From: Candidatus Lloydbacteria bacterium RIFCSPHIGHO2_02_FULL_50_18
GTDB lineage: Bacteria > Patescibacteriota > Minisyncoccia > Phycocordibacterales > UBA6899
NCBI GenBank assembly: GCA_001821395.1
Contig: MHLM01000014.1
Coordinates: 32,001 to 96,000, forward strand
DNA: 64,000 nucleotides
Direction of reading: 5' to 3'
Position numbers: made by a program. Numbering within the stretch: position 1 is the first letter of the stretch; each line of letters begins with the position of its first letter. Of the stretch, positions 12,001 through 18,000 are shown piece by piece.

Positions 12001-15000
12001 AGAGGTTGCAGAACACTATGGTTTTCGTCCAACATATTTCATTACTCATGAGGTTGCCACGAATAAGGAGGTGACAGGAGTAATGCGCGAACTAGAGCGC
12101 GAAGGGAAGAGTGAGGTGGGAGCTCATCTGCACCCGTGGACGACACCGCCCTATTTTGATGAGTCGGAAGAGAGGCACCTGAAGCATTTTCCGTGCGAGC
12201 TTAATGATGAATTCTTGAAGAAAAAATTTGAGGTTCTCCATGATGCAATCACTACGGCGATGGGGCACGCACCAACGTCTTTCCGGGCAGGTCGCTGGGG
12301 GTATGATGGACGATTGGATCCGCTACTTGCTGAGCATGGCTATGTTGCGGACAGCTCTGTATCGCCATACATGAATTGGGTGCGGGGGATTAAAAAAGGA
12401 GAAGGGCGCAAGCTTCCGGATTTTCTTGACGCATCGCCCTTTCCGTATATTTCGCCACGCGGAATCGCGGAGGTCCCAATGAGCATTCTTCCCAAAGACG
12501 TGGCATGGATATCACGAGCAGGTGCACGCATGCTCGGGAGGGGGAGCTTTCGCGTGTCGTGGTGTAGAATTTTTTCCGAGACCTCGCTTGAAATGCTAAA
12601 GGATCTCTATTTTCGCGCAGAGGCCAAGCACCTCCCGTATCTGGTATTCATGACCCACTCCTCGGAGCTTTTAGTTGGTGGCTCCCCATACTCGAAGACC
12701 CCCGAGCTTGTCGCGCATTTTAACGAAGTCTTTGAGGGATTCCTCGATTTTCTCCAAAAACAGGGCATCGCCGGAGCGACGGCAACTGAGGCGGGAAGAG
12801 AAATTCTTGCGGAATCTCGCGCTTAATCCATTGTCCGATAATAGTAATACGTCAATGCCGTCGAAAAGACATATTGAAGAAGCGTTGCCCCCACCGCTCC
12901 CCAGATGCCAAGGAAATATATACCGATAACATCAAAAATCGTCAAGGATATGGAGTTAGCGAGATTCGTAAGGTAGACTGGCGTGCGATTCTTTCGGGTG
13001 AGAATTGCCGTAGACTGTAGTTTTGTAGGAAAGAAAAGAAATGTAAGGCCAAGTGCCTGCGCATAAATAAGCGAATCAAGGTATTGGGGAAATAAGAAGT
13101 GGAACGGGATGGGGAGCAGAGCAATATAGGCAATCGTAATCGGAATGAATATCACATATGCCTTCCATATTTTGGTATGAACCGCATTTCGCAGCTGGCG
13201 GGTACTTTTTTCAGCATATTTCGGCATAGCAAGCGTCGTCGTTGCTTTTAGCAGTGCTTTCATCGGTGCTGTGGTTGCGACCGCAAAGCCATAAGTTGCA
13301 AGTGCGATGGGACCCATGAGGTGCCAGACGAGTAACGAGTCTAGTTGGGTGGCTGATTGAGAAAATGCTCCGACCAAGCTGAGGCGTTTGCCATATGCAA
13401 CCGCGTCACCTGTATCAGTGTTTTGGGAGAGCGCCGGAAAGCGCTTGAGCACGCTGCGGTGAGCGAGATACCGGAATACGGTATAGGAAGCATAGTAAAA
13501 AAATATGATGACGATGACGTTTTTTGAGCAGAAGATGGTGATGATCAAAATGAGCGTTGCCCCCGCTTGCACGAGTGCGTTGTAGATTGCAGAAGGAATA
13601 AACTGTTTTTTTCCGGCAAAAACTGCAGACCAGAGAGAATATGCCTCGGAGAGTGGAAGGAATAATGCAACAATGAGTAGGGAGTATCCGATATCGGTAT
13701 TACCCATGAATATGTAGTAGCCACCGACGCCTATGGCTCCCAGTGATCCAAGCACCCCCCACGAGAGTTTTGCGGAGAGCGATTTCCTGTATGCCCCGAG
13801 TTCTCCCCGAGCGATAGCTTGCGTGAGCGAGGTTGGCATTCCCGTGAGTGTCGCAATGGTGAGAATCGAAACAATAGATAGAATGTATTTATATGACCCG
13901 TAAGTTTCTTTAGGTATGAGATTGGCCATTGCGGTCGCGAGGGCTAGTGCAAAGAGTGCGGAGACCACTTGTCCCAAAAAAATAGAGCCGCCCCCGGAAA
14001 GGAGATAGTGCATATCGATTCCGGTGCGCGCGTTCATGCCCTGCAAAAATTTCTCGATCCTGGGTGATTTCATGATGATGATAACCACAGCATATCAGCG
14101 AAGGTGGTGAGACAAAATATTATGGTTAGATCGTGTCAATTTAAAAATTTTCATAAAAAAATGATATTGCCATGTCGGCGATATCATTTTATGTTATCAC
14201 GATAATGCGCGAATGTTTCAGCAAGTCCTTGATCGAAATTCTTCATGGGTTTCCAGCCGAGCTCTTTTATGGCCTTGCTCGAGTCAGGGGCATAGCGGAC
14301 CCGCCTGCCGTAGCACGGGCAAGTATCGTGGCTAGTGCGGGTGCGTGAGATCATCGCGGTGCTCGTTGTCGACAGGGAAGGGGTTGTCAATTATTTGACA
14401 ATTAATCCTAACTTGGTTTACAATTACTTTACAATATGCTCACGAAAGACGAAATATTGAAGATCGGTAAAGCCAAGGGGAAGATATACACGAGTCAACT
14501 TGCGGCATCCTTCGGTGTTTCTCGGCAGTATGCGAGTGCCCTTATCGGAGCGCTTGTGCTTGATCAGCAGCTTATTAAAATAGGGTCAACGAGAAGCGCT
14601 TTTTACGTGCTACCGGATTATGCACGAAAACATCCCGAGATATTCCCTCTGTCGTACGCAAAAACATTCCGTAATATTGGACTGGAGGAACACAAGATAC
14701 TGAGTGACGTAGAGAGCGGGTTTTCAGCGTTGAAAAGACTGCCTGAAAATGTCAGGAGTATTTTTACTTTTGCGTTTTCCGAGATGTTGAATAACGCAAT
14801 CGAGCACTCGCGGTCAAAGATGGTGCACATTGAGGTATCGCTACGCGGGAAAACCCTCACGTTCATCATCGAAGATTCTGGGGTGGGAGTATTCAGAAAT
14901 ATCATGCAGAAGAAGGTATTGCACTCAGAGCTTGAGGCGATCCAGGATCTACTGAAAGGGAAGACAACAACGATGCCAACATCCCACTCGGGGGAGGGAA

Positions 15001-18000
15001 TATTTTTCACATCTAAGGTTGGTGACGCGTTCATCCTTGAGAGTTTTAATTATCGCTTAACGGTAGACAACAAGATCGAGGATGTTTTCATAGAAAGATC
15101 GACTCAAAGAAAAAAGGGAACGAGGGTCACTTTTCAAATACAGACAACGACCTCACTGCATCTTGGTGACGTGTTTAGAAAGTATACGAATATCGGGGAT
15201 GAGAGCGATTATGGATTTGATAAGACCGAAGTTCGCGTCAACCTCTACACATCTCTAGGAGTGCACATTTCACGCTCACAAGCACGCAGAATTCTTTCGG
15301 GCTTGGAAAAATTCAAAGTCATAGTTTTTGATTTCGACAAAGTGTCGGTGGTTGGTCAGGCATTTGCGGATGAGATCTACCGTGTCTTTGCTCGCAAATA
15401 TCCGCACATTACCCTTCAGGAGGTCAACATGTTTCCTGGAGTACGTTTCATGGTTGAGCGTGCGAAAAATGAGGCAAAGAAAACCGCGCAGTAGGGGAAA
15501 GGGGAATTCCTCGCGCGTGCACAATCCCACGGTAGTTGAGGTAATCCCACGCGATCATTATCTTCGCTCGTAGTGCTCAAACGTTTCTTCAAGTCCCTGA
15601 TCAAAATTTTTCAGCGGTTTCTAGCCGAGTTCCTTCGTGGCCTTGCTTGAGTCGAGGGCATAGCGGATGTCGTGGCCGAGGCGGTCGGTGAGACGAGCTT
15701 TACTTATCGTATATAATCGAATACAATCAAATGTACTAAATATATATGAAAGAACGCTTCCAAAAACGCATACCCATTTCGCAAGAAATACTCTCAAAAA
15801 TAACCCAGATCGATGAGCTGAAGGGGCACTGGAAAGGGGGGCTCGCCATCAGTCCGCAGATATTGGGTCGGCTCAAAAAATCCGTCATTATCACCAGCAC
15901 GGGTGCATCGACGCGCATTGAGGGATCGAAGATGACCGATGATGATGTCGAGCGGTTTTTGAGGGCGCTTAAGTCAAATCCACCCGAGAATCGCGATGAG
16001 GAGGAGGTCGCAGGTTATGCCGACCTCCTGGGTCGTGTGTTTGATAACTGGCAAAGCATGAAGCTCTCCGAGTCGCTCATTCTCTCTTTCCACGGCGTCC
16101 TTCTTCGTTACTCGAAGAAGGACGGGCAGCATAAGGGGAAATATAAGACAAAAGAAAATCTTGTTGTTGCTCGTAATTCAGAGGGCGAACAGGTGACGAT
16201 ATTCGAACCGACACCGCCCTGGCTTACAAAAAAAGAGATGGACGATGTGCTCTATTGGACACATGAAGCAATGGCTGGAAAAAAGCTTCACCCCCTTCTT
16301 GTTACTGCAAATTTCATTTTTGAATTTCTTGCCATCCATCCATTTTCTGACGGCAACGGTCGACTTTCTCGAGCGATTACCAATCTTCTCCTTCTTCAAT
16401 CCGGGTATGGGTATGTGCCGTATGTTTCATTGGAAGAAATCATTGAAGAAAGAAAAGATGAGTATTATTCCTCACTTCGCAAAACGCAGAAATATCACAA
16501 AACAAAAAACGAAGATATTAGTGCATGGCTCAGTTTTTTGCTGGATGTATTACTCGTGCAAGCAAAGAGCGCTAAAGAAATCATGGAGAATGACGATCCT
16601 ACAAAATTGCTTTCTGGGCGCCAAATTGAGATCTATGCACTCTTCGGGCAAGATGCACTTGCGGTGCTTGATATCAAAAAGAAGCTTAATGCTATTCCAG
16701 AGGTAACGATCAAGCAGGTGCTTGCGAGGCTTGTTTCACTCAGATTGATCGAACGGATCGGCCTGGGAAGAGCGACGCGGTATGTAAAATCAAAATAGTA
16801 TTGATACCGACTTAGTCATGGTATCGTCCAGCCACGATATTATTTTTTGCCATCTTTGTAGTGGGCGAATGTTTCTTCGATCCCTTGCTCAAAATCCTTA
16901 AGCGGTTTCCAGCCGAGTTCTTTTGTTGCCTTGCTCGAGTCAAGCGCATAGCGTATGTCGTGGCCGAGGCGGTCGGTGACGTATTCGATCATTTCATCGC
17001 CGAGTCCCGCGAGCGCGATGAGTTTTTTTGTGATATCGATATTCTCGATCTCATTGCCTCCGCCAAGGTTGTAAATTTCTCCCGCCCTTCCGTCGTGGAA
17101 TACGCGGTCAATACCTGAAACGTGGTCGCTGACATGTATCCAGTCACGGACGTTCTTGCCGTTCCCATAGAGAGGGACTTTTTTCCCGGCGAGCAGGTTT
17201 GAGATAAAGAGGGGGATCAGCTTTTCCGGAAACTGATTTGGGCCATAATTGTTCGAGGCACGCGTGGTGACCGTATCGAGCCCGAAGGTCCTGTTGTATG
17301 AGCGCACAATGAGGTCTGCAGAGGCCTTTGAGGCGCTGTAGGGGCTATTGGGGGCGAGGATATCGTCCTCTGTGCTTGCTGCGGCAGCTGCGCCGAGTGA
17401 GCCGTAGACTTCATCGGTGGAGACAAAATGAAAACGCTTCACCCCATATTTCCTTGCGCACTCGAGGAGGTTTTGCGTTCCGAGGACGTTGGTCTCGACA
17501 AAGATGCCGGGCCCGGTGATCGAGTTATCAACGTGGCTTTCCGCCGCGAAGTGAATGACATGAGTCGGTTTATATTCTTCAAAGATCTCCGCAAGTTTTT
17601 TTGCATCGCGTATGTCGGCTTTAATGAACGCATAATTGGGAAGCGTTGAGACGCTGATGTTGTTGAGGTCGGCTGCGTAGGTGAGCGCATCAAGGTTAAC
17701 GAATTGATAGTTCGGATATTGGGGTATGGCAAAATTCAGGTAGTTACTCCCAATGAACCCGGCACCGCCCGTTACGAGAATGGTCTTGTCGTAGGTCATA
17801 TTTATTGGGCTTTGGGTTTTTCACTAAGATGTTTTTCCTTCATGTAATTTGAGGCGGTCAGGAGACTATCGAACGTGCCGATGTCGAACCAGGCGCCCTT
17901 CACGCTTTCCGCCCTGAGCGTGCCTTCATCGACATAGCGATTGTTTACCCAGGTGATCTCGTATTCCCCGCGATCGCTTTTTGGCTGACCCTCCATTTTT

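Follow-up and report, generated by a model that had tools for sequence, protein, structure and literature searches.

The window analysed here is a stretch of 64,000 nucleotides from Candidatus Lloydbacteria bacterium RIFCSPHIGHO2_02_FULL_50_18 (contig MHLM01000014.1, positions 32,001 to 96,000). On its forward strand, at 14436-15494, lies an open reading frame (ORF) with an ATG start that encodes a protein of 352 residues. A winged helix-turn-helix (wHTH), a GHKL kinase domain resembling RsbW and VapK, and a STAS-like DUF4325 domain of the VapS type are joined in this single polypeptide. An invariant glutamine occupies the position at which STAS substrates are phosphorylated, and the gene is preceded by a conserved array of phased direct repeats that overlaps its promoter. 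We tentatively suggest, from sequence comparisons, that the protein may be a self-contained, autorepressed switch, responsive to stress or infection and carried by the mobile accessory genome.

Domain architecture and the phospho-acceptor position

A sequence-only reading of the window had described an HTH, a GHKL kinase and a STAS-like domain in this ORF. The ORF and all the motifs quoted are present exactly as described: EMLNNAIEHS at residues 116-125, IEDSGVG at 145-151, GEGIFF at 186-191 and KVIVFDFDKVSVVGQAFADEIYRVF at 294-318. The architecture itself is borne out by domain searches and structure prediction. In Pfam, DUF4325 (PF14213) matches residues 282-332 (15279-15431) with E 1.3e-10 and 41.3 bits against a gathering score of 23, and the isolated C-terminal domain matches the same family with E 1.9e-11. 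HATPase_c (residues 113-237; 32.8 bits, gathering score 26.4) and HATPase_c_2 (residues 100-198; 29.0 bits, gathering score 27.4) also exceed their thresholds, and the N-terminal HTH match, DIP2311-like_C at residues 15-58 (E 1e-4), lies slightly under its gathering score. NCBIfam gave weak, partial matches only, SpoIIAB among them. AlphaFold2 divides the protein into a winged helix (residues 1-65), a Bergerat fold (about 100-240) and a beta-alpha-beta-alpha-beta-alpha unit (about 263-351). With an alignment of 21 sequences the model reached a predicted local distance difference test (pLDDT) of 79 and a predicted template-modelling score (pTM) of 0.62; with 62 sequences from two subfamilies these rose to 86 and 0.75. 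The gain in pTM with the deeper alignment fits a fixed arrangement of the domains in the model.

The wHTH (14436-14630) has its predicted recognition helix, approximately VSRQYASALIG, at residues 28-38. In the kinase domain (residues ~100-240; 14733-15155) the Bergerat-fold signatures are complete: the N box ExxxNAxxH within E116-S125 (14781-14810), the G1 box DxGxG at D147-G151 (14874-14888), and the ATP lid with G2, GxGxxF, within K174-S193 (14955-15014). The ATP-site residues E116, N119, N120, H124, D147, G149, G151 and G186-G188 are invariant in the 62-sequence alignment, as are the GK-TT residues of the lid, and the invariant ATP site argues for catalysis. The nearest folds of this domain are anti-sigma factors bound to a sigma factor or an antagonist: SpoIIAB (1l0o/1til), RsbW and UsfX. 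Searching the sequences of the PDB with full-length and C-terminal profiles gave no significant match, VapS appearing at E 1.1, and a fold search of BFVD with the protein returned generic GHKL and wHTH matches only.

The STAS-like domain extends over residues ~263-345 (15222-15470). VapS is a STAS antitoxin whose phosphorylation at S48 by the kinase VapK leads to release of the PIN toxin VapC (Chambers et al., PMC13373217), and the PIN.4 subgroup of VapC is coupled to DUF4325 genes (Matelska et al. 2017). The VapS fragment from PDB entry 9z7o matches DUF4325 with E 4.2e-14. Because both VapS and the C-terminal domain match this family, we assign the domain to the VapS family; CapS, the STAS protein of a related system discussed below, is not a DUF4325 member. 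When VapS ILDFSNVKMFASPFF is aligned with VFDFDKVSVVGQAFA, FASPFF falls on VGQAFA and the essential serine stands opposite Q308 (15357-15359), in the motif GQAFADE. The glutamine thus replaces the acceptor serine of VapS (S48), CapS (S54) and SpoIIAA (S58). Q308 is invariant in the 62-sequence alignment, which spans subfamilies from the Candidate Phyla Radiation (CPR) and from phages and gut bacteria; the sole exception among the viral homologues compared is L109, which reads GPSF. The other invariant residues of the domain are T264, S279-R-S-Q-A283, R285, D299, G307 and F310-A311. The sequence-only reading had presented the protein as a kinase fused to its STAS-type substrate. Since an invariant glutamine stands at the position of the phosphorylated serine, the STAS module is not a canonical kinase substrate, and that part of the description needs revision. 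A TOPRIM-like DxD reading of the C-terminal DFD was ruled out, as D301 is not conserved.

The upstream repeats and the family that carries them

The 52 nucleotides that end at the start codon (14384-14435, forward strand) hold a promoter and a putative operator of four phased 8-mers, recognized from the sequence, a promoter scan and conservation across genomes. The copies are TTGTCAAT at 14384-14391, TTGACAAT at 14395-14402, and TTTACAAT twice, at 14417-14424 and at 14428-14435, with start-to-start spacings of 11, 22 and 11 nt. Copies two and three form the promoter: the -35 hexamer TTGACA lies at 14395-14400 and the -10 hexamer TACAAT at 14419-14424, and the arrangement TTGACA-18-TACAAT scores 11 of 12 in the promoter scan. 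With the -10 hexamer at this position and the last 8-mer abutting the ATG, the mRNA would be nearly leaderless.

This layout travels with the gene. About 55 nt of upstream DNA with three to five phased direct repeats accompanies it in some 66 genomes from many phyla. Across 80 genome loci the motif occurs 165 times in the bin from -100 to -1 and about once per 100-nt bin elsewhere, and the spacings between copies peak at 11 nt (51 cases) and at 21/22 nt (55 cases), or one and two turns of the DNA helix; 50 of 66 loci have at least three copies. The motif also varies with the recognition helix. Proteins with VSRQY have T[GT]ACAAT, those with VSRQ[HR] have ACAAC, and those with VTRSY or ASRQH have ACATAGA; in the FSRAY group, TGACAACTT or TTACAACTT is present once or twice. 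At locus L063 the motif is present in inverted orientation too. Overlap with a near-consensus -35 and -10, together with the co-variation with the recognition helix, makes an operator for autorepression the probable role of the repeats. Of seven exact motif matches in the window, three lie within 14384-14435; no second cluster was found elsewhere in the 64 kb, the gene's own promoter being the only one, and a regulon inside the window is thereby ruled out. On the downstream side conservation ends with the ORF, and the tail beyond …NEA is variable.

The protein belongs to a large family. In a word-indexed homologue search, 6745 of the 8000 candidates scored passed the threshold of E <= 1e-3. 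The best 120 of these are all about 350 residues long and 62-100% identical, and come from Lloyd-, Taylor-, Vogel-, Colwell- and Azambacteria, with Deltaproteobacteria and Margulisiibacteriota metagenome-assembled genomes (MAGs); identities of 62-70% span CPR phyla. An exhaustive hidden Markov model search over 1.84 billion cluster representatives (clusters at 50% identity) gave 793 clusters at E <= 1e-30 and 1805 at E <= 1e-10. Among the best 150 clusters, 134 are 320-390 residues long and matched over almost their full length; the remaining 16 comprise 15 shorter sequences (177-303 residues, probably fragments) and one of 527 residues. A second large subfamily, 27-33% identical, is found in Lachnospiraceae MAGs and gut phage contigs. 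The family is thus distributed mostly among CPR genomes and phages of gut Firmicutes, with a uniform predicted architecture, and is not a one-off fusion. Judged by its conservation, the protein is under strong purifying selection and has been retained for long. The large uniform family, the conserved phased operator and promoter, and the published relatives CapK/CapS and VapKSC had all been missed in the sequence-only reading.

Viral homologues are found on 47 IMG/VR contigs, 31-43% identical (one fragment 52%), with small or large terminase, integrase, endolysin and tail genes as neighbours. On many of the phage contigs (among L090-L136) the homologue lies directly upstream of the genes for the small and large terminase, and on others near integrase or endolysin; on L123 the homologue (5713-6762) is followed by terS (6957-7460) and terL (7463-8854). 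A role of the phage homologues in the timing of late genes is possible. We also observed that many contigs with close homologues are only 1.2-2 kb long, about the length of the cassette described below. Assemblies may break at cassette ends where the flanks vary within populations; an equally possible reason is that contigs in the source collections have a short median length.

Neighbours within four genes were surveyed at the 80 genome loci, together with the 47 viral loci. The 499 neighbours at the genome loci fall into 448 clusters. No conserved partner gene was found at either set of loci, nor was a separate STAS antagonist, a sigma factor or a PP2C phosphatase a recurrent neighbour at them. 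Fic recurs most often, at 7 of 80 loci, followed by a TrmB-like HTH protein at 5 and an NYN protein at 4. Housekeeping genes frequently lie directly beside the homologues, for example those for leucyl-tRNA synthetase, enolase, phosphoglycerate kinase, RuvB and DnaE. The survey, with its AbiE, NYN, Fic and ParE-Phd units and its phage contigs, reveals no conserved housekeeping context, in keeping with the variable setting expected by the sequence-only reading.

Cassettes bounded by host gene 3' ends

The gene and the Fic gene that follows it are bracketed by copies of the 3' end of rfbB, which is triplicated in the window. The intact rfbB (dTDP-glucose 4,6-dehydratase; Pfam GDP_Man_Dehyd, E 2e-83) lies on the reverse strand at 16840-17799, and its 3' end, 16840-16979, is the repeated sequence. 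Remnant 1 (14179-14332, reverse strand) holds about the last 38 codons, ending in …VRYAPDSSKAIKELGWKPMKNFDQGLAETFAHYRDNIK and the stop, has no gene body and forms the outer boundary of the cassette; by BLAST it is ~78% identical to 16835-16953. Remnant 2 (15552-15691, reverse strand) lies between the studied gene and the Fic gene and holds about the last 45 codons with one in-frame TAG; it is 84% identical to 16858-16979. These copies are the only sizeable repeats within the 64 kb. The Fic-domain protein between remnant 2 and rfbB (15746-16798, forward strand; 350 residues) is SoFic-like, with the motif HPFSDGNGR (Pfam Fic, E 4.9e-15; PADLOC SoFic, E 1.9e-42). It also contains an N-terminal S-x-x-x-E-G motif of the inhibitory type (STRIEG). 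Where Fic genes neighbour homologues in other genomes, their position and orientation vary.

A sister genome (locus L081), 81% identical in the studied protein and 83% in RfbB, has the same site with different content. There the rfbB 3' end is quadruplicated (4948-5064, 5812-5905, 7105-7203 and 11495-11617), and the order is remnant A, PhdYeFM-ParE, remnant B, the homologue, remnant C, a 1040-residue LCAT-domain protein with two small ORFs, and rfbB. The two genomes therefore carry differing sets of co-oriented cassettes at one site: the studied gene and Fic in the window, and PhdYeFM/ParE, the homologue and the LCAT-domain protein in the sister. Remnant 1 is orthologous to remnant A, and this degenerate 5' boundary common to both genomes indicates that the cassette is older than the split of the two Lloydbacteria species. 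The placement in a variable, cassette-like island beside a Fic gene, as put forward in the sequence-only reading, agrees with the rfbB brackets, the SoFic match and the differing content of the sister genome.

Similar arrangements recur elsewhere. At 17 of the 80 loci, direct repeats of local sequence bracket the gene, sometimes by itself, in inserts of 1127-1183 nt, and sometimes along with one to four others; the repeat pairs found number 53, of which 49 are direct and 4 inverted. The flanks in other genomes have their origin in many different genes. Next to these units lie further repeat-bounded ones with AbiEii/AbiEi, NYN, Fic, ParE/Phd, RadC and reverse transcriptase; the reverse transcriptase (RVT_1, E 3.8e-11; L079 7106-8554 or L043 7303-8535) lies in a unit that also holds the homologue. 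Locus L063 (3560-8700) has an array of NYN, Fic, the homologue and AbiEi-AbiEii, with similar junction sequences between the units. The boundary of its Fic unit is an 82-nt duplicate, 95% identical, of the promoter and first five codons of the homologue, so that Fic was apparently inserted into the 5' end of the homologue and left the homologue intact. At L017, copies of the last 26 codons of a 495-residue host gene (5076-5152 and 7761-7837) flank a four-gene unit of a RadC-like protein, the homologue and two small ORFs; they encode an identical C-terminus of 26 residues and differ at 9 nt, 7 of them at codon position 3. At L009 (5846-5907 and 7039-7099) and L007 (5876-5920 and 7048-7093) the downstream flanking repeat takes in the final codons of the homologue. 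The tail of the L009 homologue is a copy of the C-terminus of the upstream host gene with its terminator (KKKKSR and KHKKSR, each followed by the stop), which indicates that conservation of the ORF extends as far as …NEA and that the tail derives from flanking DNA.

The pattern of substitutions bears on how the copies arose. Relative to the real rfbB 3' end, remnant 2 has 3, 2 and 16 differences at the first, second and third codon positions and remnant 1 has 5, 7 and 15; other comparisons between repeat copies gave 3, 1 and 13, and 6, 2 and 19. A target-site duplication followed by neutral decay is ruled out by this third-position bias (3, 2, 16; 3, 1, 13; 6, 2, 19; and the L017 copies), and the copies therefore diverged as functional alleles in separate lineages. 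The comparison favours entry of DNA that would have carried a foreign allele of the target 3' end, through either att-type integration or recombination between homology arms. Neither the neighbour families nor the locus gene tables examined contained an integrase, and no shared terminal motif or inverted repeats were found at the cassette ends. An integron (attC) reading was ruled out, since the cassette has its own promoter and its junctions are copies of the rfbB 3' end rather than attC-like palindromes. A literature search for this cassette phenomenon found none. Elsewhere in the window, a perfect 20-nt inverted repeat with a 4-nt loop (GCGCCGCCCCCCGCTCGAAG / CTTCGAGCGGGGGGCGGCGC) is present at 19917-19960, amid overlapping long ORFs.

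Proposed function and relation to known systems

We propose the following sequence of events. The wHTH would bind the repeats head-to-tail and repress its own strong promoter, keeping the protein scarce. The glutamine-bearing STAS-like domain would dock in cis on the kinase and act there as a sensor or as a pseudo-substrate that cannot be phosphorylated, comparable to the internal STAS domains of CapK and VapK. A cue from stress or infection might then alter the docking or the oligomeric state; candidates are a nucleic-acid by-product such as single-stranded DNA (ssDNA), by analogy with CapK and VapK, or a shift in ATP/ADP, as for RsbW. The protein would quit the operator, a burst of expression from the consensus promoter would follow, and the freed kinase could act in trans, on host or phage targets that it phosphorylates or on a sigma factor that it sequesters, with growth arrest, exclusion or addiction as the outcome. 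One polypeptide would then reproduce the logic of CapK+CapS or VapK+VapS, with the kinase itself serving as the output.

This autorepressed switch is plausible enough to advance tentatively, and several observations weigh against it. The invariant residues S279, S281 and T264 adjoin the canonical site and could be acceptors in cis. Autophosphorylation at a shifted site is therefore possible, and it would make the protein a true autophosphorylation device rather than one with a pseudo-substrate. Docking of the STAS-like domain on the kinase is putative, the structure prediction having given no inter-domain contacts or predicted aligned error from which it could be read directly. RsbW-type kinases are normally highly specific for their STAS substrates, so that a target in trans is speculative. 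The repeats coincide with the -35 and -10 hexamers, and their conservation could in part be that of the promoter alone. Many homologues lie amid housekeeping genes, outside recognizable defence islands, and a tblastn search of cultured phage and plasmid collections gave no match. No family of PADLOC-DB v2 matches the 352-residue protein; the stress, phage-defence or addiction role first proposed from the sequence, as far as it concerns defence, is accordingly guilt by association.

The same domains could make up an ordinary one-component transcription factor, in which the wHTH controls distant host genes, the GHKL and STAS-like domains sense a ligand or ATP/ADP, and there is no toxic or immune output. 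The layout of wHTH plus sensor, the predicted autoregulatory operator, the long vertical retention in two Lloydbacteria and the many copies amid housekeeping genes are consistent with this. However, the 64-kb window has no second motif cluster, the neighbours are not conserved, and a patchy family with 60-70% identity across phyla, found in phages and in repeat-bounded cassettes, misfits a host regulon factor; we consider this explanation rather unlikely. The nearest folds of the kinase domain, anti-sigma factors with a sigma factor or antagonist, raise another: a DNA-tethered anti-sigma factor in which the GHKL domain binds a host or phage sigma, the STAS-like domain competes in cis, and a conformational switch matters more than kinase activity. 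The missing phospho-serine and an operator overlapping both -35 and -10 would suit such a protein. With no linked sigma factor gene at the 80 loci and invariant ATP-site residues that argue for catalysis, it is nevertheless unlikely. CPR genomes also hold few alternative sigma factors, which counts further against it.

The companion genes of the repeat-bounded arrays, ParE/Phd, AbiE and Fic, would fit a pure addiction module, a fused toxin-antitoxin in which loss of the gene or of autorepression is harmful and phage is not sensed. Tight autorepression, here predicted, is typical of type II toxin-antitoxin operons, and the gene is retained in streamlined genomes. We nonetheless judge this improbable: a single polypeptide has no obvious asymmetry between a labile antitoxin and a stable toxin, and the phage copies beside terminase and lysis genes fit exclusion or infection timing at least equally. 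A protein for cassette mobility or maintenance, with iteron-like or end-binding repeats and a GHKL ATPase working on DNA like MutL or a topoisomerase, would account for the direct repeats of local sequence around the gene at 17 of 80 loci, the constant insert size of ~1.13 kb and the putative binding sites at one end only. However, Fic, AbiE, NYN and ParE/Phd units have similar flanks without a protein of the 352-residue type, no nuclease or recombinase motif is present, the GHKL fold is nearest to small anti-sigma kinases and not to MutL or GyrB, and the cassette ends lack a conserved terminal sequence, all of which make this idea barely tenable. The autorepressed switch can also be taken further. 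The protein might by itself form a device for immunity or addiction, triggered through positive feedback, and spread as a 1.13-kb cassette of promoter and ORF; together with Fic, AbiE, NYN and ParE units it would move between CPR genomes without an integrase, using allelic copies of host 3' ends of ~30-180 nt as homology arms. We regard this extension as doubtful; if true, it would describe an integron-like accretion system built on homologous flanks.

Neither the fusion nor its theme is new. Members are already in databases, named only as 'DUF4325/STAS-like domain-containing protein' or 'anti-sigma regulatory factor', and the combination of kinase, STAS and HTH has published precedent: kinase-STAS pairs were recently shown to control bacterial immune operons (CapK/CapS) and a toxin-antitoxin system (VapKSC) (PMC13373217). 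The name DUF4325 was found in three papers by a literature search, none of them functional, and the defence papers on HATPase domains that it returned were not relevant. The family would be a minimal, single-gene form of the kinase-STAS logic, and it is abundant in ultra-small CPR bacteria and in phages of gut Firmicutes, both of them difficult to study. Clean handles on it are the putative 52-nt operator, the invariant glutamine at the phospho-site, the invariant serines and threonine next to it, and phage-borne homologues of cultivable hosts. The cassette anatomy, promoter-bearing single genes between synonymously diverged copies of host 3' ends, provides a handle on how streamlined CPR genomes gain accessory genes.

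Islands that target gene 3' ends and supply a replacement for them, such as SGI1 at trmE and those targeting tRNA genes, and the cassette arrays of integrons resemble the present locus, where co-oriented units lie downstream of rfbB, each with an allelic rfbB 3' end. In contrast to such islands and to integrons, the units here are 1.3-4 kb, each has its own promoter, and no integrase, attC-like sites or conserved ends are seen. At the level of the protein, CapRel(SJ46) offers a parallel: it is a fused toxin-antitoxin, encoded on prophages and islands, whose C-terminal domain restrains the enzymatic toxin domain until a trigger arrives. The single-polypeptide concept is similar, whereas the folds are unrelated, and a trigger, toxicity or defence would be conjectural for the present family. 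The classical modules SpoIIAB/SpoIIAA, RsbW/RsbV and SiaB/SiaC consist of separate proteins, require a phosphorylatable serine or threonine, and work with a PP2C phosphatase and a sigma factor or other output. Here no phosphatase, sigma or output gene is linked, and the acceptor serine is absent.

The closest comparisons are with the two recently described immune systems. CapK has the order HTH-STAS-GHKL, is activated by ssDNA and phosphorylates S54 of CapS (Chambers et al., EMBO J 2026, PMC13373217). CapS is a STAS-wHTH repressor that binds its own promoter and leaves the DNA once phosphorylated; capS invariably comes directly after capK, in most cases with an immune operon as well, and the system is activated by DNA damage (PMC13373217). 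The protein studied here has the same types of domain (HTH, STAS and anti-sigma-type GHKL), and would similarly repress its own promoter and place DNA binding under the control of a kinase. It differs in its order, wHTH-GHKL-STAS, in having no capS-like neighbour or downstream operon, and in its direct repeats, whereas CapS sites are palindromic. With CapK and VapK sequences taken from the supplement of PMC13373217, hhalign gave a probability of 15.7% for CapK, so that homology beyond generic GHKL motifs was ruled out. For VapK the probability was 62% (E 7.6e-5), over only 71 columns from the region before the N box through G1, with EHS(K/R)SK and D(F/S)GVG as aligned motifs.

VapKSC is therefore the nearer of the two in its kinase, and VapS shares its Pfam family with the C-terminal domain; VapKSC and the present family are also both found in mobile, immune-type contexts. 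However, VapKSC comprises three genes including VapC/PIN, whereas a single polypeptide is found here, with no PIN gene adjoining it in the window and none in the 25 most recurrent neighbour families listed for the 80 loci. VapK has an N-terminal STAS domain that the present kinase lacks, and the essential S48 of VapS is a glutamine in our protein, which has in addition a wHTH and a predicted autoregulatory operator. Because domain order, gene number, partner and acceptor residue all differ, the protein, as read from its gene, shares its parts list with CapK/CapS and VapKSC and is a member of neither.

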